Of a DNA stretch of 56,444 bases, positions 5,713 through 53,625 are shown in pieces. The notes beneath the pieces are model-generated. The model saw only the letters and a program-made list of their open reading frames with translations. It did no database searches and was not told the origin of the DNA. The DNA lies in NCBI GenBank assembly GCA_964615225.1, contig CAZTMV010000001.1, positions 1 to 56,444 on the forward strand. Direction: 5' to 3'. This DNA is from an uncultured Candidatus Saccharibacteria bacterium (lineage in GTDB: Bacteria > Patescibacteriota > Minisyncoccia > Phycocordibacterales > Phycocordibacteraceae). The position numbers and the translations under genes are program-made. Every line of letters starts with the position of its first letter. Within the stretch, counting starts at the first letter, position 1.

Positions 5713-6120
5713 ATGGCACTTGCGATCGCGATTCTCGTCGTCGCAGTCCTGACATTTGGTTTCTTTGGGCTGACATCGCTTGAAGCTAAAAGCGGCAAGC
5801 GCTTGTTCGCCAAGTCTCGCGAGAAATTCGATGCCGATGCAGACCATGCATTTTCGGTCATGCGCGAAGTGGATCTTGGCAAGCTCATCTTCCACGCGCT
5901 GCATGTTGCGTGGGATCATTTTGTGCATGAGGTAGTGCATGTGATCTTGGTTGCGGTCCGCTTCTTGGAGCGTACCCTGACCCGAATCGCTCGCGAAATC
6001 CGCGGACGTCGTGCGGAAGGCGTCTCGCCGGTAAAGCCGTTTGCTGAAAGCGTTGATCGCATCAAGGCTGCAATGCGCAAAGAGGAAAAACAGGATACGA
6101 TAGAAAACACGCCGTCGTAG
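5713..6120 (+). CDS. hypothetical membrane-anchored protein
   Basis: N-terminal TM helix MALAIAILVVAVLTFGFFGL. It starts 6 nt after the tsf stop. Its last 10 nt, including the TAG stop, lie inside the tRNA-Thr gene. Confidence 0.45.
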   Translation: MALAIAILVVAVLTFGFFGLTSLEAKSGKRLFAKSREKFDADADHAFSVMREVDLGKLIFHALHVAWDHFVHEVVHVILVAVRFLERTLTRIAREIRGRRAEGVSPVKPFAESVDRIKAAMRKEEKQDTIENTPS

Positions 6121-6186
6121 CTCAGTTGGTAGAGCAACGCACTTGTAATGCGTAGGTCGCCGGTTCGATCCCGGCCGACGGCTCCA
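6111..6186 (+). tRNA. tRNA-Thr (anticodon UGU), CCA encoded
   Basis: Hand-folded cloverleaf: acceptor GCCGTCG/CGACGGC, D arm GCTC..GAGC, anticodon stem ACGCA/TGCGT with loop CTTGTAA, T arm GCCGG-TTCGATC-CCGGC, 3' T-CCA. Confidence 0.9.
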
Positions 6187-6544: not shown

Positions 6545-7219
6545 TTAGGAAGCTTCTGTAGTAGAAGCGCTCTCAAACATTTCCTCAGGGAATACCTTTT
6601 CAAGCTCCTCAAGCGTCGTGAAGCCATAGTGCTGCTTGTCCTCAATCACGAAGGCAGGGAACTGCGGTTTCACCTTCTCGACGGCAATAAGGGTCTTCAG
6701 TGCTGCAAGGTCAAGGTGGTAGTCGAATGAGTACACGCGAAGCGCTGGATAGGTCTGGCGCAGATACGAGAGCGCGTAGCCGGCGCGATCACAGTCCACG
6801 CACTCGCCCTCAACGTTTGAATAGAAGTAGAGGGAGACAACTTGCTCAGAGCCGCAGGTGCGCTCGATGCGCTTGGTTAGAAGGTAGTCGCGGATCTGGA
6901 GCAAGGTGTAGCGCTCCTTGAGGCGCACTACTTCCGGATCGGTTGCGCCCAGGCGCTCCTCGGCGTATGCAAGACGGTCGCCAAGACCTCCGACTTCCTG
7001 AGAGAGTCCGGTGCCTGCGGAAATATCTTCGCAGGGAGCTTCAGCGAGGAGGGCGAACTGCGTCTCGATTGAAAGCGTGTCTGTTGCAAGCTGATCCTCG
7101 ATGGCGCGAAGCTCTGCAACGCGCTGCGCATTGAGGAAGTTAACCGCAAATAAAATAGTGCCGATGATAGCGATGGTGATTGCAAGCGCAATGAGAGCGT
7201 TTCGTGTAGCAAGAGTCAT
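6545..7219 (-). CDS. membrane-anchored thioredoxin-fold protein (CxxC)
   Basis: N-terminal TM helix, then a coiled segment, then VVSLYFYSNVEGECVDCDRAGYALSYLRQTYPALRVYSF...FPAFVI (beta-CxxC-alpha with a cis-Pro-like FPAF). It starts 10 nt after the GT2 stop, so the two are probably co-transcribed. Confidence 0.5.
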   Translation of the reverse strand: MTLATRNALIALAITIAIIGTILFAVNFLNAQRVAELRAIEDQLATDTLSIETQFALLAEAPCEDISAGTGLSQEVGGLGDRLAYAEERLGATDPEVVRLKERYTLLQIRDYLLTKRIERTCGSEQVVSLYFYSNVEGECVDCDRAGYALSYLRQTYPALRVYSFDYHLDLAALKTLIAVEKVKPQFPAFVIEDKQHYGFTTLEELEKVFPEEMFESASTTEAS

Positions 7220-8482: not shown

Positions 8483-8530
8483 AAGCCCGTAAACGTGAGA
8501 GTAAGTATAGCAAATTGGCCCTCTTTTTCC

Positions 8531-8536
8531 TATACT
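8531..8536 (+). promoter_or_regulatory. -10 box TATACT 6 nt upstream of the pheS ATG (leaderless type)
   Basis: ttcc-TATACT-agagcg-ATG. A divergent TATACT for the GT2 gene lies at 8509-8504. Confidence 0.5.
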
Positions 8537-8542
8537 AGAGCG

Positions 8543-9274
8543 ATGCAGGAAGGAAAGCTCCATCCCATGACGATTGCCATCCGCGAGATCGCGGACATCT
8601 TCGGCCGCATGGGTTTTTCTATTGCGTCAGGTCCCGAGCTTGAAGACGACTGGCATAACTTCACCGCGCTCAATGTGCCGGAGGATCATCCGTCGCGCGA
8701 TATGCAGGACACCTTCTGGACGAAGGAGACTCCTGCGCGCGTCCCGCGTACGCAGACCTCGTCAGTGCAGATCCGCTACATGGAAGAAAAGATGCGCGAG
8801 GGTGCCGCGCCGCCGTACCGCATCGTGGTGCCGGGAAAGGTGTTCCGTAATGAAGCAACTGATGCAACACACGAAGCGCAGTTCTACCAGAACGAAGGAT
8901 TGGTGATTGATCGCGACATTACGCTCGCGCACTTGAAAGGAACCCTCGATCAGTTCTTCAAGGAATATTTGGGAGCTGAGGCGAAGGTGCGTTTTCGTCC
9001 AAGCTACTTTCCGTTCACCGAGCCGTCAGTGGAAGTAGACGTGTGGTTTGAAGCTCCAGGTAAAGAAGGTAAGTGGCTTGAGGTTATGGGTGCGGGCATG
9101 GTGCATCCGCAGGTGCTCCGGAATGCTGGCGTGGACCCAGAGCAGTACCAAGGCTTTGCCTTTGGAGGCGGCATCGAGCGCTTGGTTATGGTCAAGTACG
9201 GCGTGCCGGACGTACGCTTGTTCCATAACGGTGACATTCGCTTTGTGCACGGCTTTGACGAAACTGTCGTATGA
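8543..9274 (+). CDS. pheS: phenylalanine-tRNA ligase alpha subunit, catalytic core only
   Basis: GKLHPMTIAIREI...GPELEDDWHNFTALNVPEDHPSRDMQDTFW...FRPSYFPFTEPS...GFAFGGGIERL. About 243 aa, starting exactly at the catalytic core. Confidence 0.9.
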   Translation: MQEGKLHPMTIAIREIADIFGRMGFSIASGPELEDDWHNFTALNVPEDHPSRDMQDTFWTKETPARVPRTQTSSVQIRYMEEKMREGAAPPYRIVVPGKVFRNEATDATHEAQFYQNEGLVIDRDITLAHLKGTLDQFFKEYLGAEAKVRFRPSYFPFTEPSVEVDVWFEAPGKEGKWLEVMGAGMVHPQVLRNAGVDPEQYQGFAFGGGIERLVMVKYGVPDVRLFHNGDIRFVHGFDETVV

Positions 9275-11523: not shown

Positions 11524-13599
11524 ATGGCAAAAGCTAAGGAAAAAGACGCTTCTGGAGCGGGTAAGGGCAAGGCGTACGATGCGTCGTCTATTCAAGTGCT
11601 TGAGGGGTTGGATCCGGTACGCAAGCGCCCGGGAATGTACATCGGTACCACCGGTCCCGATGGTCTCCACCACCTGATCTGGGAAATCTTCGACAACTCG
11701 CGCGACGAGGCGATGGGCGGATTTGCAAACGATATCGAAGTCGCGCTGCTTCCAGGTGGGTATATCCGCGTTGCTGACAACGGTCGCGGTATTCCGGTAA
11801 ATATCCATCCGAAGACAAAGCTGTCTGCGCTTGAAATGGTTATGACCCAGCTGCATGCCGGTGGTAAGTTTGGCGGCGAGGACTCTGGCTACAAAGTGTC
11901 GGGAGGTCTGCACGGCGTGGGCGCATCGGTCGTGAACGCGCTTTCCACTAACGCAAAAGTCATCGTGCACAAAGATGGCGGCGTACACACGCAGGAGTAC
12001 AAGATCGGTAAGCCGCAAGGGAAGGTAAAGCAGATCGGTAAATCAAACCTGCACGGCACCATTACGTACTTCCGTCCAGACGAAACAATCTTCACTGCCG
12101 GTATTGAGTGGAATTGGGACAAGATCGTCGCGCACCTGCGTCAGCAGGCATACCTGGTGAAGGGTGCACGCATTAGCGCTATCGATGCGCGCGAGAATGC
12201 GCTTGCAGCTGAAAGCGAAGACGTGCACTACCTGCGCGAGCTCGGGCTTGAGGTGCCGTCGATGACCTTCTACTTCGAAGGAGGACTTCGTTCCTTGGTT
12301 TCGTTCTACAACCAGCGCCAGACGCCGGTGCATAAGAATATTTTCTACGTTGATTCTGAGAAGGACGGCGTGATGGTGGAGGTCGCGCTCCAGTATGTTG
12401 ACGACATTTCGCCGAAGCTGATGGCGTTTGCAAACAACATCTACAACCCAGAGCACGGTACGCATGTGACCGGTTTCAAGACAGCGCTCACGCGCACCTT
12501 GAACTCCTACGGCCGCAAGGCAGGCATCCTTAAAGAGAGCGAGGAGAACTTCACCGGAGACGATGCTCTTGAGGGCATCACAGCAGTGGTCTCAATCAAG
12601 ATGCCGGAGATCCAGTTCGAGGGACAGACGAAGGCAAAGCTCGGATCCGTTGAAGCGCAGGGCGCAACCGCAACCGTGTTTGGAGACGCATTTGCCTCAT
12701 TCCTCGAAGAGAATCCAGATGATGCAAAGGCAATCATCAACAAGGTGCTGCTTGCTTTGAAGGCGCGCAAGGCGGCAAAGGCTGCGAAGGACTCCGTGCT
12801 TCGCAAGGGTGCACTCGAGGGCATGACGCTGCCGGGCAAGCTTGCAGACTGTCAGACCAAAAACGCAGAAGAATCAGAGCTGTTTATCGTAGAGGGAGAT
12901 TCGGCAGGCGGTACTGCTAAGACCGGACGCGACCGCCGCACACAGGCAATTCTTCCGCTTCGCGGAAAGATCTTAAACATCGAGCGAGCACGCCTGGATA
13001 AGATGCTTGCGTCTGAACAGATCAAGAACCTTGTGGTAGCTCTTGGTACGGCGATTGGAGATGTCTTTGATATCGGCAAGCTGCGTTATCACAAGGTCAT
13101 CATTGCAACGGATGCCGACGTGGACGGCGCACACATTCGCACGCTCTTGTTGACGTTGCTGTTCCGTCACTTCCGTCCACTTATTGATGCTGGCTACATT
13201 TACATTGCACAGCCGCCTTTGTACAAGCTCACCCGCGGCAAGGAAGTGTTCTACGCCTACACCGATGAGGAGAAATTTAAGATCGTAGGCAAGGAGGCTG
13301 TTGCAGAAACAGCTGACGAACCTCCTGCAGAAGAGGAGACGCCGGAAGGAGAAGAGGAAGACACCAAGAAGAAGGCGCCAAAGAAGTTCAACCAGCAGCG
13401 CTACAAGGGTCTTGGAGAAATGAATGCCTCTGAGCTTTGGGAAACTACCATGGACCCGGCTCGCCGCGTGTTGAAGCGCGTAACGGTAGAGGATGCTGCA
13501 GAAGCAGACCGCATCTTCGATATCCTTATGGGCACCGACGTTGCAAGCCGCAAGTCATTCATCCAGTCGAACGCAAAGCTAGCGAATCTGGACGTATAA
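11524..13599 (+). CDS. gyrB: DNA gyrase subunit B
   Basis: YDASSIQVLEGLDPVRKRPGMYIG..., EGDSAGG, PLRGKILN, DADVDGAHI, QRYKGLGEMN. TGcTATACT lies 15 nt upstream. Confidence 0.95.
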   Translation: MAKAKEKDASGAGKGKAYDASSIQVLEGLDPVRKRPGMYIGTTGPDGLHHLIWEIFDNSRDEAMGGFANDIEVALLPGGYIRVADNGRGIPVNIHPKTKLSALEMVMTQLHAGGKFGGEDSGYKVSGGLHGVGASVVNALSTNAKVIVHKDGGVHTQEYKIGKPQGKVKQIGKSNLHGTITYFRPDETIFTAGIEWNWDKIVAHLRQQAYLVKGARISAIDARENALAAESEDVHYLRELGLEVPSMTFYFEGGLRSLVSFYNQRQTPVHKNIFYVDSEKDGVMVEVALQYVDDISPKLMAFANNIYNPEHGTHVTGFKTALTRTLNSYGRKAGILKESEENFTGDDALEGITAVVSIKMPEIQFEGQTKAKLGSVEAQGATATVFGDAFASFLEENPDDAKAIINKVLLALKARKAAKAAKDSVLRKGALEGMTLPGKLADCQTKNAEESELFIVEGDSAGGTAKTGRDRRTQAILPLRGKILNIERARLDKMLASEQIKNLVVALGTAIGDVFDIGKLRYHKVIIATDADVDGAHIRTLLLTLLFRHFRPLIDAGYIYIAQPPLYKLTRGKEVFYAYTDEEKFKIVGKEAVAETADEPPAEEETPEGEEEDTKKKAPKKFNQQRYKGLGEMNASELWETTMDPARRVLKRVTVEDAAEADRIFDILMGTDVASRKSFIQSNAKLANLDV

Positions 13600-13600
13600 G

Positions 13601-13628
13601 AAAAAGCCCCGCTTGAGCGGGGCTTTTT
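13601..13628. terminator. bidirectional intrinsic terminator
   Basis: AAAAAgccccgc-ttga-gcggggcTTTTT. Confidence 0.8.
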
Positions 13629-13629
13629 C

Positions 13630-14310
13630 TTAATCTTCAATCTCGAGTTCGACCGTGTCGTCGTTGTTGCGCTCGTTAGATTCTGAAACTGCGTTCTGGT
13701 AGTCGACATCAATTTCAATTTCCATAGAACGGTTCGGCTTCGGGTCCGTGATGCGGAGCGTGAAATTTTGAGAGCCGTTCGGGAGCAGGTAGCCGCCGTT
13801 GCCGATTGCAGTATCGTCTCCCTCGACATCAATGCGTACGCGCCAGTTTGCAGCTGCGTTGGTGCCGATGTTGCGGACAGTGAACTTGAGGCCTGCATCG
13901 CGGCCTTCAGGAACCTGATCATCCTCGACGAATGAGTTGCCGCGGAAGTAGCCTGTCTCGACATTGACGAGTGCGAGATCTGCTTGGCCATAGAGGTTTG
14001 GCGTGGTCTGCGTAACGACTGGAGGATAGTAGCCGATGATCGGCGTAGTTGGGGTGGTTGGCTTAGCTGGGGTTGTGGTTGCAGTAGGAGTAGCCGGGCG
14101 AGACGGGGTAGTGGTTGCTGCTGGGGTCTCGTCATTCTCTTCAGGGTCTGAGGAAAGAATTACCGCTGAGGAAAGGCGCGAGAGTGTCTCAGGCACATAG
14201 CGTGCTGCGTAGATTGCAAGGAAGATGCCGGCAATCAAAAGCGCACCGAAGCCAACGATCGCAAGACCGTTCAGGGCGGGTTTCTTTGGGGCGGTAGTAG
14301 TGTCTGCCAT
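13630..14310 (-). CDS. N-terminally anchored cell-surface protein with Pro/Thr linker and CARDB-like domain
   Basis: TM helix LAIVGFGALLIAGIFLAIYAA, a PT-rich linker, then DLALVNVE...LKFTVRNIGTNAAANWRVRIDVEGDD...SESNERNNDDTVELE. TAGATT lies 9 nt upstream of the ATG. Confidence 0.6.
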   Translation of the reverse strand: MADTTTAPKKPALNGLAIVGFGALLIAGIFLAIYAARYVPETLSRLSSAVILSSDPEENDETPAATTTPSRPATPTATTTPAKPTTPTTPIIGYYPPVVTQTTPNLYGQADLALVNVETGYFRGNSFVEDDQVPEGRDAGLKFTVRNIGTNAAANWRVRIDVEGDDTAIGNGGYLLPNGSQNFTLRITDPKPNRSMEIEIDVDYQNAVSESNERNNDDTVELEIED

Positions 14311-17827: not shown

Positions 17828-17860
17828 GAAACGGCCCCGCATATGCGGGGCCGTTTCATT
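17828..17860 (+). terminator. intrinsic terminator
   Basis: gaaacggccccgc-atat-gcggggccgtttc followed by ATTT. Confidence 0.75.
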
Positions 17861-17876
17861 TGGTAGAATGCTTGCA

Positions 17877-18164
17877 ATGGATATCGGCAGCCTCATGTAC
17901 TTCGGCGCACTCGCTCTCTGGAGCGGGGCAGTAGCGTACTTCATCCTGGAGAAGTTCTTCCCGCAGCCTGCTGTTGAGGAAACTACCGAGCGCGTACGAA
18001 GCGATATTGCCTTTCCGATACACGTTCCTGCGCCCGAGAAAGTGGAAGCACTTCCAGCGCAGCCCATGCCCGACTACCAGCTCACTGAAGGCTTCAAGGC
18101 GTTTCAGTCCGGAGCAGAGCTCACGGTCGAGGACATTGTGAAAGGACTTTCCCGTAGGGATTAG
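17877..18164 (+). CDS. hypothetical small membrane protein
   Basis: MDIGSLMYFGALALWSGAVAYFILEKFF... with TGGTAGAAT 7 nt upstream. The ORF-track start at 17868 lies in the -10 box. Confidence 0.45.
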   Translation: MDIGSLMYFGALALWSGAVAYFILEKFFPQPAVEETTERVRSDIAFPIHVPAPEKVEALPAQPMPDYQLTEGFKAFQSGAELTVEDIVKGLSRRD

Positions 18165-19390
18165 CTCCTTGCTGCAATCTCGCTCTTGAGCTGTGCGATA
18201 ACTGCATCGATGCCCATGGCGTCGAGCTTGCCTTTATCGCGGCTTTCAACAGACGCGGTGCGCGCCTCGACTTCAGCATCTCCAAGCACGAGTACGTATG
18301 GTACGTGCTCAGATTTTGCGTTGCGGATCTTCTTACCTAGAGACTCATTTGCAGCATCAAGCTCAACGCGAATACCCGCCTCGCGAAGCAAGGTGTACAC
18401 CTCATGCGCATACGCAGCGTGCTTCTCGGAAATAGGGAGGACCTTTGCCTGCACCGGCGCAAGCCAGAGCGGGAAGGCACCTGCGTATTTCTCGATCAAG
18501 AAGGCCATCGTGCGCTCGATAGAGCCGATCGATGAGCGATGCACGACAAACGCCATGTGTTGTTTCCCGTCCTCGCCGGTGTAGGTGAGGTCGAACTTCC
18601 TCGGAGACGAAAGGTCGTACTGCACCGTAAAGGCAGTGTCCTCTTTGCCGTTCACGTTTTTCATCTGAATATCGATTTTCGGACCATAGAAGGCTGCTTC
18701 GTCCTTGGCTTCCACAAATGGTACGCCGCGCTTTTGCATCGACTCGCGAAGCAGCATCTCAGCCTTCTCCCAGCCTGCGTCATCCTTGAAATACTTCTCA
18801 GTGTTCGCGCGGTCTCCAAGCGAGAGGCGGTACGAGTAGTCTTCGCCAGCCTTGAGTCCCAACACGCTGTTTGCGTACTCGATCAGGTCAAGCGCCTTCT
18901 CGATTTCCTCGATCGCCATTTCTTCTGTAGCGCAGATGATGTGTGCGTCTGACAGGCAGAAGGAACGTACGCGCTGGAGGCCCATCAATTCGCCGGACTG
19001 TTCGTAGCGGTAGAGCTTAGCAAGCTCGGCGTAGCGGATCGGCAGCTCGCGGTAGCTGTGCGGGGAGCGCAGGTAGAGCTCGAAGTGGTGCGGGCAGGTC
19101 ATCGGGCGGAGCATGAACTTCTCGTCCTCATCCTCAATCGGCGCGTACATCGAGTCCTTGTAGTGCGGGTAGTGACCCGACTTTTCATAGAGCTCGATCT
19201 TCGCGATGTCCGGAGTTATGACGTGCTGGTAGCCGCGCTTGAGTTCTTCGTCCACGATAAAGCGCTCGAGCTCGCGGCGGATTGCGGCACCCTTAGGGGT
19301 CCACAGCGGAAGGCCCTTGCCGACGGAGTCGGAGAAGGTGAAGAGGTCTAGTTCACGGCCCAGTTTCTTATGATCGCGGTCGATATCCAT
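18161..19390 (-). CDS. thrS: threonine-tRNA ligase, catalytic and anticodon-binding domains only
   Basis: Starts MDIDRDHKKLGRELDLFTF (the class II core begins here); MLRPMTCPHH, FRYEQSGEL..GLQRVRSF, and a C-terminal anticodon-binding domain. 409 aa. The longer ORF start at 19468 would read through a terminator hairpin. Confidence 0.9.
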   Translation of the reverse strand: MDIDRDHKKLGRELDLFTFSDSVGKGLPLWTPKGAAIRRELERFIVDEELKRGYQHVITPDIAKIELYEKSGHYPHYKDSMYAPIEDEDEKFMLRPMTCPHHFELYLRSPHSYRELPIRYAELAKLYRYEQSGELMGLQRVRSFCLSDAHIICATEEMAIEEIEKALDLIEYANSVLGLKAGEDYSYRLSLGDRANTEKYFKDDAGWEKAEMLLRESMQKRGVPFVEAKDEAAFYGPKIDIQMKNVNGKEDTAFTVQYDLSSPRKFDLTYTGEDGKQHMAFVVHRSSIGSIERTMAFLIEKYAGAFPLWLAPVQAKVLPISEKHAAYAHEVYTLLREAGIRVELDAANESLGKKIRNAKSEHVPYVLVLGDAEVEARTASVESRDKGKLDAMGIDAVIAQLKSEIAARS

Positions 19391-19410
19391 AGTGGTGGTA
19401 AGTATAGCCA

Positions 19411-19438
19411 ATAAAAAGCCCCGCTGCTGAGGCGGGGG
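19411..19438 (-). terminator. intrinsic terminator 20 nt upstream of the thrS ATG (attenuator terminator)
   Basis: Minus strand CCCCGC-cucagca-GCGGGG-CUUUUUAU. Confidence 0.7.
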
Positions 19439-19480
19439 TAGTTGTCTTTCAGTTAGGAGAACGACCACACCGCCAGGGCG

Positions 19481-19519
19481 CTAGAGCGCAGTGGTGGTAG
19501 TGGTTGTGCGAAATGCCAT
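19481..19519 (-). CDS. candidate Thr-rich leader peptide MAFRTTTTTTAL
   Basis: atg gca ttt cgc aca acc act acc acc act gcg ctc tag. The ATG is 8 nt after a TATACT -10 box, and six consecutive Thr codons occupy 19507-19490. Confidence 0.55.
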   Translation of the reverse strand: MAFRTTTTTTAL

Positions 19520-19527
19520 ACCTAGAA

Positions 19528-19555
19528 AGTATAGCCCTGAGTATGTTCTTGTCAA
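19528..19555 (-). promoter_or_regulatory. canonical promoter TTGACA-16-TATACT driving the thrS leader
   Basis: Minus strand TTGACA (19555-19550), 16-nt spacer, TATACT (19533-19528). Confidence 0.65.
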
Positions 19556-19585
19556 AACAGAAGTGCCGGCCCAGAGGGCCGGCAC
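19553..19585 (-). terminator. intrinsic terminator of the dnaE-downstream gene
   Basis: Minus strand gtgccggcc-ctctg-ggccggcac followed by TTCTGTTTTG. Confidence 0.7.
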
Positions 19586-19595
19586 TGTGAGAGGT

Positions 19596-19970
19596 CTATG
19601 CGGCGAGTCTGACGCACGCATAGTCTGCGGTTTTGAACAGGGCATTCCGTAGAACGATCCCTAAATGGGATCGAAGCGGCATGCGCTCCGAAGGAACGAT
19701 GCGTTCAAGCGTGAGCTTGCCTTCATTGGCAGCTCGCTCGATTACATCCTTTCTCGGCACCTTGTCAGGAAACACACGCGCGAACGCTCTCGTGCATTCC
19801 GTAAGGAACACAAGGCGCTGCGTCGAATGCAGCTGTTTGAACGGCTCAGAAGTTTCATGTAGCAACTTTGCTCGGATTGCTCCGGAGCGTTGCGGACTCT
19901 TCTCGAGTTCCTCAAAAGCGATCTGGTACGCGCACTTGATCTTCTCAAGCGCACAGGCCACATCATTCAT
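19596..19970 (-). CDS. hypothetical protein (co-transcribed downstream of dnaE)
   Basis: 124 aa, SD GAGAGGAG upstream, no terminator between it and dnaE. No recognisable family. Confidence 0.5.
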   Translation of the reverse strand: MNDVACALEKIKCAYQIAFEELEKSPQRSGAIRAKLLHETSEPFKQLHSTQRLVFLTECTRAFARVFPDKVPRKDVIERAANEGKLTLERIVPSERMPLRSHLGIVLRNALFKTADYACVRLAA

Positions 19971-46845: not shown

Positions 46846-48102
46846 ATGGCTAAAAAAGCTGCTGTGAAGAAAAAGAAAACCACCAAAGCTCGCCCAAAGG
46901 CGAAAGCAAAGAAAAGTGCGCCGAAGAAGGCTAAGAAGGCTGTAAAGAAGCCGGTAGCTAAGAAGGCGTCCAAGAAAACCCGCGCAATGGCGGTGGTGCG
47001 TGCTGGTGCTCATGGTGCAAAACAGAAAGCCAAGGATGTTCGCAATGACAAGATGGACGCGCTTATCCGCAAGGGTCAGGAACGCGGCTATGTTACCTAT
47101 AGTGAAATCCTCAAGGAGTTTCCGCACGTGGAGGAAGACGTTTCCTTCCTCGAGGAACTCTATGAGAAGCTCTCAACCTGCGGCATTGATGTGCTTGAGG
47201 GCGGCATGCTCGAAGACAGTGCTGACCAGTACCTCGCAAGCCGTAACATCAAGGGACGCGAATCGACCGGTTACGACTCGATCCAGATCTACCTGCGTGA
47301 GATCGGCCAGTACCCGCTTCTCACCGCAGCTGAAGAGCGCGAGCTCGCAAAGCGCATTGAGAAGGGAGATGAGGAGGCAAAGCACATTCTTGCACGCTCA
47401 AACCTTCGCCTCGTGGTGTCTATTGCAAAGAAGTACGTCGGCCGCTCACCGGACCTGACTCTCTTGGACCTCATCCAGGAGGGCAATATCGGCCTCTACA
47501 AGGCCGTAGAGAAGTTCGACTGGAACAAGGGCTTCAAGTTCTCGACGTACGCTACCTGGTGGATCCGCCAGGCTATTACGCGCGCGCTCGCAGACCAGTC
47601 TCGCACCATCCGTATTCCGGTGCATATGGTGGAAACCATTGCTAAGTACAAGCAGGTCTCCCGCCGCCTTGCGCAAGCACTTGGCCGTGATCCGCAGCCG
47701 GAAGAGGTGGCGGTAGAAATGGGTATTGAAGTAGATAAGGTGTATCAGATCGAGAAGATCAATCAGGACACCTTGTCGCTTGAGAGTCCGATCGGCTCTG
47801 ACGATGACGACGGCAAGTCCTCACTCGGTGACTTCATTGCAGACGATAAGATTCCGTCACCTATTCAGGAATCCTCTGAGCGCATTCTCACCGAACAGGT
47901 CCGCGATATTCTCGATGATCTTTCTCCAAAGGAGCGCAAGATTCTTGAGATGCGCCACGGACTTCTCGACGGCATCTACCACACCCTTGAAGAGGTGGGG
48001 AAGGAGTTTGGCGTGACCCGCGAGCGTATTCGCCAGATTGAGGCGAAGGCGCTGGAGAAGATCCGCACGCACGAGAAGAGTAGGAGACTGAAGAGTTACT
48101 AA
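46846..48102 (+). CDS. rpoD: primary sigma-70 factor with Lys-rich N-terminal tail
   Basis: [65 protein letters not shown], and region 4 [20 protein letters not shown]. Confidence 0.95.
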
Positions 48103-51769: not shown

Positions 51770-53047
51770 CTAGCGGGACAGGAGGTAGGCTGCCAAATCC
51801 TCGCGTGCAACTTGCTGCTCGCTGCTCGCTGCAAGCTCTTTGACGCGGTACGTGCCGGAGCGCGCTTCTTCTGCACCTGCGGCGATGAAGAACGGAATGC
51901 CGCGGCGCACCGCGTCTTTGACCTGGTCGCCAAGCGCGCGCGACGTGACGTTCACCAAGGTTGGGATGCCAGCAGAGCGAAGCAGGTCGGCAAGCTTGTG
52001 CGCGTCTACAAGATCTGTTTCGTTCGGTATTCCGATCGCAACCTTCGTCGTGCTCTTGATGTCCGGCAGGTAGCCGTGGGTCTCAAGGAAATCTGCGAGT
52101 ACGGTGTCTCCGATCGCAAATCCAACCGCTGGAATCGGGTCGCCGCCAAACATAGACACCAAGCCGTCATAGCGACCGCCACCTAGAAGCGCGCGCGGGT
52201 TTGCCGGGTCCGTATCAAAAAGCTCGAACACGAGTCCGGTGTAATAGAGGAAACCGCGCACGGTTGATGGGTGGAAGATCGCGTTATCAATACCACGCTC
52301 TTTGAGGGCGCCCATAAGTGCCATGAGCGCCTGGTACTCAGCTTCTACTTCTGCAACCGCATGCGATTCAATAACCTCAAGCGGATCTTTCTCGTTGCGG
52401 CGGAATGCCGAGCGAGCTTCTTCAAAGGCACGTGTTTCCATTTTTTCCTTGCGATCTAGGAGCGCGAGGTAGCTGGTCATTTCTTCCTCAGAGAGTCCTA
52501 CGGCCGTGCCTGCGGCGTTCAGCAGGGAGCGAGAGTTAAGGCGGATCTGGAAATCCTTATTCTGTGCGCCAAGCGCGCTCAGGATTGCGTGCGCCATAAC
52601 GACTGCTTCGCCTTCAGCTTTCGCTCCGTCAATACCGACGATGTCGACGTCGATCTGGAAGAATTCGCGCAGGCGGCCCTTTTGCGGACGCTCGTAGCGG
52701 AAGCGGTTCCCGATCGAGAACCAGCGGGCAGGGAATGAGAGCTCCCGGCGCTTGGCTGCGATCATGCGGGCTAGAGACGGGGTCATCTCAGGGCGCAGGG
52801 TTACACGGCGGCCGCCGCGGTCTTCGAAGGTATAGGTCTGTTCGTTTACGATCTCCTCGGATGTCTTGCGCTCATAGAGCTCTGCGCGCTCTAAGGGAGA
52901 CGCATTGTATTCCTCAAAGCCGTGGAGCGTGAGGACGCGGCGGGCAGTCGAGAATAGATACTGGAGCTTAGCCCAATCGCTCGGGTAGAAGTCACGCACT
53001 CCCTTATACGGCTCAGTGTCGAGCGCGCTGCGGTCTTTCATAGGCAC
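51770..53047 (-). CDS. hisS: histidine-tRNA ligase
   Basis: KGVRDFYP, LRPEMTPSLAR, FRYERPQKGRLREFFQ, GGGRYDGL, and a C-terminal anticodon-binding domain. Confidence 0.9.
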   Translation of the reverse strand: MPMKDRSALDTEPYKGVRDFYPSDWAKLQYLFSTARRVLTLHGFEEYNASPLERAELYERKTSEEIVNEQTYTFEDRGGRRVTLRPEMTPSLARMIAAKRRELSFPARWFSIGNRFRYERPQKGRLREFFQIDVDIVGIDGAKAEGEAVVMAHAILSALGAQNKDFQIRLNSRSLLNAAGTAVGLSEEEMTSYLALLDRKEKMETRAFEEARSAFRRNEKDPLEVIESHAVAEVEAEYQALMALMGALKERGIDNAIFHPSTVRGFLYYTGLVFELFDTDPANPRALLGGGRYDGLVSMFGGDPIPAVGFAIGDTVLADFLETHGYLPDIKSTTKVAIGIPNETDLVDAHKLADLLRSAGIPTLVNVTSRALGDQVKDAVRRGIPFFIAAGAEEARSGTYRVKELAASSEQQVAREDLAAYLLSR

Positions 53048-53058
53048 CAGTGTAGCAG

Positions 53059-53625
53059 CTAGACGCCCAGTTTCGAAGCGCGCGCGTCGTCCATTTTCGC
53101 GTGCTCGCGCAAAATCACGTCGCGCACATGCTCGGGGTTTCCAAGGCCGTGCATTTTGATGCGATTCACCTCGGCACCTGCTGACTCAACCGAGACCGTG
53201 CCGAAGCCGAAGATTGTGTTGAAGAAGCCTTCAAGGTCTGTCTCGACGTTCTGCACGCGGTTTAGGAAGAGGCTGGAGACCGAGCGGTTCCAGAAGCCCT
53301 TTTGGTCTATTTCAATGATGCGTTCGTTCGTGACTACCCACTGGTCGAGGTAGTGGTTAGTGAAGACGCCGAACGCGGCCATCCAGAGGAAGAGCCAGTA
53401 GATGCCAACGATGAACTGGAACCAGGGGTTTTCAAACGAGAAGAGCAGCGCAAAGTCGATCACAGACTCCGGGCTCATGGTCATGAGGTACGCGCCGACG
53501 CCAGGCAGTAGGTACGGGAGGTAGTCGAGGATTGCAATAGGAACCAGGCGGCCGACCAGAATGAGAGGGTGTTTGCGCACGTTTATAACCACGTGCTCGC
53601 CCATGTGTAGTTGTAGTTTTTCCAT
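53059..53625 (-). CDS. membrane protein with bacterial PH (bPH_2/YdbT-like) domain
   Basis: Two TM helices, then VVTNERIIEIDQKGFWNRSVSSLFLNRVQNVE...GTVSVESAG. Start set at MEKLQLH... Confidence 0.5.
   Translation of the reverse strand: MEKLQLHMGEHVVINVRKHPLILVGRLVPIAILDYLPYLLPGVGAYLMTMSPESVIDFALLFSFENPWFQFIVGIYWLFLWMAAFGVFTNHYLDQWVVTNERIIEIDQKGFWNRSVSSLFLNRVQNVETDLEGFFNTIFGFGTVSVESAGAEVNRIKMHGLGNPEHVRDVILREHAKMDDARASKLGV

Follow-up and report, generated by a model that had tools for sequence, protein, structure and literature searches.

A threonine-codon leader upstream of thrS, a probable ribosome-mediated transcription attenuator in an uncultured member of the Patescibacteria

The DNA analysed here, called the window throughout, is a stretch of 56,444 nt (contig CAZTMV010000001.1) from an uncultured bacterium of the Patescibacteria, or Candidate Phyla Radiation (CPR). 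On its minus strand, thrS, the gene for threonyl-tRNA synthetase (ThrRS), is preceded by a leader that carries a short open reading frame (ORF) with six consecutive Thr codons, followed by an intrinsic terminator. We consider it probable, with good confidence, that this leader is a ribosome-mediated leader-peptide transcription attenuator, which makes the transcription of thrS from an upstream promoter, P1, depend on how much charged tRNA-Thr is available. Most likely, the leader raises the output of the synthetase when charged tRNA-Thr is low. The same mechanism had been suggested by an earlier examination of the letters alone (the sequence-only reading), and it gains support, partly through modelling, from the conservation of the leader, the strength and covariation of its antiterminator helix and the response of the fold to a ribosome footprint. 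The elements, their conservation, the covariation and the footprint-dependent switch of the fold were observed by computation, and they are described below in the coordinates of the window.

Promoter P1 (19528–19555, minus strand, as for all elements of the leader and for thrS) is formed by TTGACA (19555–19550) and TATACT (19533–19528), separated by 16 nt. It scores 11/12 in a consensus scan and is the sole promoter-like match in the 2.2 kb between 18000 and 20200. The ATG of the leader ORF, at 19519, lies 8 nt past the −10 box of P1, and the transcript is predicted to be leaderless or to have a 5′ untranslated region of 1–2 nt. The ORF (19481–19519) reads atg gca ttt cgc ACA ACC ACT ACC ACC ACT gcg ctc tag and encodes MAFRTTTTTTAL, with the UAG stop codon at 19483–19481. 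The six Thr codons, ACA ACC ACU ACC ACC ACU (19490–19507), constitute region 1, the partner of region 2. In the fold, the stop codon is held by an apical hairpin, GCGC-UCUA-GCGC (19478–19489). The sequence-only reading had put the whole UAG in the loop of this hairpin, which is correct for U and A, while G is in the stem.

Region 2, UGGCGGUGUGGUCGU (19461–19475, in which GGCGGUGUGGUCGU occupies 19474–19461), begins 9 nt after the first base of UAG and can pair with region 1 or with region 3. Region 3, ACUACCCCCGCC (19431–19442), is the 3′ strand of the antiterminator and overlaps the 5′ arm of the attenuator terminator. The terminator (19411–19437) has a CCCCGC-N7-GCGGGG stem at 19437–19419, followed by CUUUUUAU, and its U tract, UUUUUAUU, is located between the leader ORF and thrS; it exists as first described, but its start is 19437, one base from the 19438 given before. 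In the 20 nt from the U tract to the thrS ATG (19390), neither a local hairpin nor a Shine-Dalgarno sequence was found. A TATACT at 19401–19406, which lacks both a −35 element and a TG extension at the right distance, is a proximal −10 box and may be part of a second promoter, P2, for a leaderless or short-leader thrS mRNA; the activity of P2 is suggested by this box. A 10-mer, TACCACCACT, occurs twice on the minus strand, at 19499–19490 within the leader and at 19400–19391, directly 5′ of the thrS ATG. The promoter, the Thr-codon ORF, region 2, the proximal TATACT, the repeated 10-mer and the thrS ATG were all found where the sequence-only reading had placed them.

Conservation was surveyed in about 170 thrS loci, of which 80 came from GTDB species representatives, 80 came from metagenomes and 11 were reached through the closest ThrRS proteins. 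Five further diverged versions of the leader were found in these relatives, with ThrRS proteins 74–91% identical, so that the Thr-run ORF and the terminator stand upstream of thrS in five diverged relatives, as expected from the sequence-only reading. The leader peptide is MARLTTTTTTAL in L161 (ThrRS 91%); (M)FALTTTTTTT, with a GTG start, in L162, which is the same as L163 and L165 (87%); MQHKTTTTTTAR in L001, the same as L081 (84%); MQVTTTTLTI in L168 (83%); and MFANASTTTTT in L104 (74%). These five ORFs have 10–12 codons, and the Thr runs of the six variants, including that of the window, have 4–7 codons.

The whole architecture is shared by the six variants. Each has a TTGACA-N16/17-TATACT promoter, and the leader start codon, ATG in five and GTG in one, is found 6–8 nt after the −10 box, and 6–7 nt after it in the five relatives. 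This is the usual position of the transcription start, which implies a leaderless mRNA. Within the Thr codons, AC is invariant and the third base can be A, C, U or G; conservation does not extend to the residues beside the run. In all variants, the stop codon precedes the GGCGG/AGCGG segment of region 2 by 9–11 nt, and the CCCCGC/GCGGGG stem of the terminator is invariant (6/6), with a weak U tract in L168. A TATACT or TATAAT is present 7–13 nt upstream of the thrS ATG, again in 6/6. The apical stop-codon hairpin is kept in L161 and L001 and is absent from L104, L162 and L168. The second copy of the 10-mer is partial in L161 (TACCATC) and L162 (ATACCACC) and absent from L001, L104 and L168. 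In a read-through transcript, this second copy could find a partner in region 2, or it could serve as a CA-rich, unstructured initiation region.

Runs of Thr codons of this kind occur only before thrS. In a scan of 963 kb, comprising the window and the related loci on both strands and in all frames, the eight short ORFs (≤30 aa) with at least five consecutive Thr are all leaders of this kind, located about 120 nt ahead of thrS; the rest of the sequence has none. An nhmmer search with the profile of the six leaders against all related loci and the window returned no further copies of the leader, only terminator-like fragments, and a structured DNA pattern extending from region 2 to the terminator had no matches in a collection of viral contigs. 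Leader-bearing and leader-less lineages are interleaved by ThrRS identity. Most relatives have no leader, and their thrS comes straight after dnaE, with TGGTATATTC 7–8 nt before the ATG. Among the loci of the closest ThrRS relatives, no leader was found in P0007, P0008, P0010, P0016 and P0024, and that of P0014 resembles a T-box. Taken together, the sequence comparisons indicate a real, conserved but rare leader-peptide transcription attenuator. Some candidates were discarded during the survey: MTLTETTVSRPPFRF of L158 and other Thr-rich ORFs that passed a looser filter are chance occurrences or overlap with the dnaE terminator, and the longer annotation of P0008 and P0010 comes from ORF calls extended upstream, not from a leader.

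The 137-nt leader of the window has a folding energy of −45.2 kcal/mol (z = −3.2), and 1 of 200 shuffled sequences folds as well. The energies of helices 1:2, 2:3 and 3:4, in this order and in kcal/mol, are −23.5, −14.0 and −11.4 in the window; −27.0, −15.1 and −12.3 in L161; −23.2, −13.4 and −11.8 in L001; −14.5, −12.7 and −14.9 in L104; −10.4, −13.9 and −12.6 in L162; and −10.1, −13.3 and −13.9 in L168. The sequence-only reading depended on an antiterminator of more than negligible stability, and the values across the variants, −12.7 to −16.9 kcal/mol for the antiterminator and −11.4 to −14.9 for the terminator, agree with it on this point. The antiterminator proposed then, GGCGG:CCGCC, does exist, but it had been limited to 5 bp; GUGGU:ACUAC extends it to about 10 bp and −14.0 kcal/mol. 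Since this helix takes CCGCC from the terminator arm, the two structures are mutually exclusive. Region 3 (ACUACCCCCGCC) is in effect a mimic of the run of Thr codons.

The 2:3 helix is present in all six variants, and 60 of 60 pair cells are standard in the per-sequence folds. Compensatory double changes were found at 4 of its 10 pairs. Pair 2, whose 3′ base is not part of the terminator stem, is G-C in the window, G.U in L104 and A-U in L162; in L168, the entire GUGGU:ACUAC half is swapped for GGCUU:GAGCC. RNAalifold, applied to the alignment from region 2 to region 4, gave the 2:3 helix as the consensus. Column covariation on MAFFT alignments was dropped in favour of the per-sequence folds, because the register of the (ACN)n run slides and region 3 is thrown out of alignment when the C run shifts by one base.

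The pairing between regions 1 and 2 is less uniform. In the window, the 1:2 duplex has −16.0 kcal/mol, compared with −9.8 ± 2.7 for shuffled region 2. The window shares a strong duplex (−16 to −20 kcal/mol) with L161 and L001; the pairing is moderate in L104 and weak in L162, and L168 lacks it. The 1:2 / 2:3 / 3:4 layout of the sequence-only reading therefore stands in 6/6 variants for 2:3 and 3:4, but not for 1:2, which is missing from L168 and weak in L162. Region 2 of L168 pairs with the Thr codons at −7.2 kcal/mol, worse than shuffled sequences, and the Thr run is still present. The retention of the run without a pairing partner points to a coding rather than a pairing constraint and is our best argument for the codons. 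In the minimum free energy (MFE) structure of the whole leader, the 5′ end, UAGGUAUGGC (19524–19515, including the leader AUG), pairs over 10 bp with GCUAUACUUA (19408–19399), just before thrS; part of the 5′ strand of this helix may precede the transcription start.

The effect of translation on these structures was modelled with partition functions, in which a 29-nt ribosome footprint was moved codon by codon. In the window, the probability of the terminator stem is 0.98 for the free RNA, 0.00–0.23 with the A site on Thr codons 1–5 and 0.98 with the ribosome at the stop codon, and that of the 2:3 helix is 0.64–0.98 with the A site on Thr codons 1–5. L161, L001, L162 and L168 switch alike, with terminator probabilities of 0.8–1.0 at the stop codon and 0–0.23 at Thr codons 1–5, which brings the number of switching variants to five of the six.

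From these results we infer the transcription start, the translation of the ORF, the stalling of the ribosome, the regulated termination and the activity of P2, and we propose the following mechanism. The strong P1 would make a leaderless mRNA, on whose 5′ AUG a ribosome would initiate as soon as it is exposed. When Thr-tRNA is plentiful, the ribosome would pass the six Thr codons and reach UAG, where its footprint would mask the 5′ half of region 2. Region 3 would then pair with region 4, and RNA polymerase would stop at the U tract, leaving a transcript of about 105–110 nt. When Thr-tRNA is scarce, through low ThrRS activity or low threonine, the ribosome would stall on Thr codons 1–5 and occupy region 1; the free region 2 could pair with the nascent region 3, removing the CCCCGCC arm of the terminator, and once this arm is captured the polymerase would continue into thrS. 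The proximal −10 box would probably give a basal expression of thrS that is independent of the attenuator. Since the runs include every one of the four Thr codons, the leader would respond to the overall output of ThrRS and not to a single isoacceptor.

Several points weigh against this mechanism. The element is rare, with about six sequence variants among about 170 thrS loci, and must be dispensable for the clade. The 1:2 helix is not universal across the six variants, and the untranslated RNAs of L162 and L168 already favour the antiterminator, so that the three-helix textbook scheme holds only in 4/6; according to the modelled folds, L162 and L168 look like reduced two-state versions, in which only the terminating ribosome enforces termination. 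In L104, the terminator is favoured at equilibrium at every position of the ribosome, and this variant would need kinetic trapping. When region 1 of the window is masked, the MFE structure contains a shifted 5-bp hairpin beside the U tract. In addition, the proximal −10 box could make the expression of thrS largely independent of read-through, and, since thrS has no Shine-Dalgarno sequence, we have to assume that it is translated from the long read-through transcript; such a sequence is also missing from many internal genes of the window.

Another explanation, which we consider unlikely, is that the leader is an RNA-only switch with an incidental ORF, read by a trans factor: either ThrRS bound to region 2, or uncharged tRNA-Thr bound to the ACN repeats as in a minimal T-box. 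Region 2 is antisense to the Thr codons and shows the anticodon-like triplets UGU-GGU-CGU, the autoregulation of E. coli thrS by ThrRS through mimics of the anticodon arm is a textbook case, and T-box-like leaders precede the same gene in sister lineages. The 1:2 helix alone could also account for the (ACN)n run in four variants, but L168 keeps its Thr run though it is unable to pair with region 2, and the free third codon positions beside an invariant AC also speak against such a switch. Moreover, an in-frame leaderless start and a stop codon 9–11 nt before region 2 are found in all six variants despite their divergent flanks, region 2 is double-stranded in both states and is not an anticodon loop, and the leader has neither a T-box motif nor an Rfam T-box match even at E≤10.

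It is also quite unlikely that the leader is a separate small unit (a short RNA, a micropeptide or an insulator), with thrS transcribed essentially only from the proximal TATACT. Its terminator is canonical, the free RNA of the window is in the terminated form (P = 0.98), and a good −10 box precedes the thrS ATG in 6/6 variants, like the sole promoter of the leader-less relatives. A constitutive terminator, however, needs no conserved, covarying antiterminator over its 5′ arm, and a functional micropeptide is unlikely, as the peptide is not conserved outside the Thr run. The element is found only before thrS, and its codon run specifies the very amino acid that the enzyme encoded downstream uses; nothing comparable precedes pheS or hisS in the window. 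That a promoter-like site, an ACC-rich low-complexity stretch and a terminator came together by chance, without function, is very improbable. Intergenic DNA often contains short ORFs and hairpins, and the matches to the Rfam Trp_leader and Thr_leader models are far below threshold, but the occurrence of the whole architecture in six diverged sequences with compensatory changes, its exclusive location and the fold z of −3.2 speak against chance; comparison of the sequences effectively refutes it. The ribosome-mediated attenuator is the reading with the best support.

Leader-peptide attenuators of this type are known from other bacteria. In E. coli, pheST (with its leader peptide gene pheM) is an aminoacyl-tRNA synthetase gene controlled by a leader-peptide transcription attenuator. 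It shares with the window leader the run of cognate codons, the alternative terminator and antiterminator hairpins and the charged-tRNA signal. The window leader differs in amino acid, gene and phylum, has no sequence relationship with it, is apparently leaderless instead of using a Shine-Dalgarno sequence, and has a second −10 box downstream of the terminator, ahead of the gene. No leader precedes the pheST operon of the window. The enterobacterial thrL leader (RF00506) is similar in its short ORF with a Thr run, its 1:2 / 2:3 / 3:4 layout and its intrinsic terminator; however, it controls the biosynthetic thrABC operon and also has Ile codons, whereas the window leader fronts a synthetase gene and is not a member of RF00506. 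CPR bacteria are generally thought to lack amino-acid biosynthesis. With amino acids thought to be imported, the synthetase gene, and not a biosynthetic operon, would be the regulated step.

The sequence-only reading had considered a leader-peptide attenuator of thrS as a new arrangement, which was overstated, since attenuators of aminoacyl-tRNA synthetase genes are known or predicted (pheST; trpS and leuS of Streptomyces) and a 'thrL' is listed for S. lividans. The pheST attenuator has been cited as a precedent for the classical attenuators predicted upstream of Streptomyces trpS and leuS (PMC1262725). In S. lividans, leaderless leader peptides were described before alaS, thrS, trpS and leuS, and the 'thrL' before thrS, MKRVRPFLETTPGFVPAR, is weak, with two Thr and no clear terminator (PMC8079986). 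Mycobacterial leaderless short ORFs with polycysteine were experimentally shown to work as attenuators (bioRxiv 10.1101/834739). These Actinobacterial attenuators share with the window leader the ORF at the 5′ end of the transcript, and some are located before aminoacyl-tRNA synthetase genes. In contrast to S. lividans thrL, the CPR leader has 4–7 tandem Thr codons, a canonical terminator and a covarying antiterminator. It belongs to a phylum unrelated to the Actinobacteria and presents no sequence similarity to their attenuators.

Two other systems control thrS in different ways. The thrS/thrZ T-boxes of Firmicutes (RF00230) share the logic of the window leader, a read-through of a terminator upstream of thrS at low charging of tRNA-Thr, but a T-box senses uncharged tRNA without a ribosome, and the window leader has no specifier loop and, with about 110 nt, is too short. 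In the translational operator of E. coli thrS, the shared feature is the response of thrS to the sufficiency of ThrRS; that operator folds like a tRNA over the ribosome-binding site and is recognised by ThrRS, whereas the structures of the window lie upstream of the terminator and none is at the AUG. Rfam at gathering threshold returned nothing relevant in the window or in 18 related loci, including those with the leader. Permissive Rfam matches at the leader were at chance level, with 14.3 bits for Thr_leader (RF00506; gathering 55) and 17.6 for Trp_leader (RF00513; gathering 41). No match to the T-box RF00230 was obtained in 19200–19800 even at E≤10, and the GGUGGNACCGCG motif is absent from the window leader. 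In the literature, no CPR T-box, CPR attenuator or Thr-codon thrS leader was found beyond the Actinobacterial papers.

T-box-like leaders do occur in sister lineages of the Paceibacterota. At least 15 loci (L002, L008, L031, L037, L041, L043, L050, L062, L067, L076, L086, L124, L141, L150 and L170) present, about 70–250 nt upstream of thrS, a leader with an ACC specifier (that is, Thr) of the GGCUACCAACC type, the GGUGGNACCGCG motif and a terminator. L002 and L170 reach 33.4 bits each against RF00230, whose gathering score is 93. With only about 33 bits, the leaders of these sister lineages would represent, judging from sequence, a divergent CPR variant of the T-box that standard annotation misses. 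A 10-mer, CGCCCTGGCG, is common to the window leader (19480–19471, minus strand, from the stop codon to region 2) and to the terminator arm of the T-box-like leader of L002 (about 620–640); it may be a coincidence, or a remnant of an ancestor shared by the two types of leader.

The thrS gene (18161–19390) encodes a ThrRS of 409 aa with matches to Pfam PF00587 and PF03129 only. The protein comprises the class II catalytic core and the anticodon-binding domain, without the N-terminal TGS and editing domains, and aligns to residues 241–636 of E. coli ThrRS. The ATG at 19390 is favoured as start over a GTG at 19468 by the length of homologues (407–414 aa). As the 120 best ThrRS homologues all have 407–440 aa, this clade of the Paceibacterota seems to have an editing-less enzyme as a rule. 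The closest relatives, 80–91% identical, come from metagenome-assembled genomes of Candidatus Paceibacterota, Kaiserbacteria and Parcubacteria, and the source of the window is accordingly a CPR bacterium of the Paceibacterota/Kaiserbacteria type.

Upstream of the thrS leader is dnaE, and the window also encodes rpoB, rpoC, rpoD, dnaG, gyrB, pheST and hisS; the gene for the rpoD-type sigma factor is at 46846–48102. An ORF of 118–124 aa without Pfam match lies between dnaE and the leader in the window (19596–19970, minus strand) and in L161 (1940–2296), and in L001, L104 and L162 the leader is directly behind dnaE. The 124-aa ORF of the window ends in its own intrinsic terminator (19562–19586, minus strand), with an 11-bp stem of 9 GC pairs followed by a T run; the consensus scan that found P1 returned this terminator and that of the attenuator. 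Two GC-rich hairpins flanked by A and T runs, at 13598–13631 and 17829–17868, are located between convergent genes and were matched, on both strands, by the section of the leader profile that covers the terminator. Each is probably an intrinsic terminator that works in both directions, which would place this type of terminator in general use in the genome. The only tRNA gene of the window, at 6111–6186 (plus strand), encodes tRNA-Thr(UGU), which would decode ACA, and possibly ACG, in the leader.

Many genes of the window have a TAnnnT box (TATACT- or TATAAT-like) 6–9 nt before the ATG and no Shine-Dalgarno sequence, as at 8520–8545 (+), 53041–53060 (−), 6545–7219 (−), 26191 (+), 31538 (+) and 49669 (+). 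Leaderless expression would for this reason be ordinary in the window, and leaderless mRNAs appear to be pervasive in this genome. Both pheS and hisS have leaderless-type starts and no leader peptide, and no other short ORF with a run of one amino acid turned up close to a promoter when the window was scanned for such cases.

The thrS leader represents a new and well-supported family of leaders. Its proposed mechanism is the textbook one, although the gene and the bacterial group are new for it, and the advance is incremental. We lean towards the view that it represents the first family of ribosome-mediated attenuators in the Patescibacteria/CPR, a leaderless Thr leader on an editing-less thrS that alternates with T-box-like leaders and includes the two-state versions of L162 and L168. 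If this is true, transcription would be tightly coupled with leaderless translation in these ultra-small bacteria. The regulation of genes in the CPR/Patescibacteria, nearly all of which are uncultured, is almost unexplored, and the leader, a short (about 110 nt) and self-contained element, would be, if it is a conserved attenuator, direct evidence at the sequence level that they couple transcription to leaderless translation and monitor the charging of tRNA. Together, the related lineages, which place before thrS a T-box-like riboswitch, a peptide leader or nothing, offer a compact natural example of regulatory turnover.

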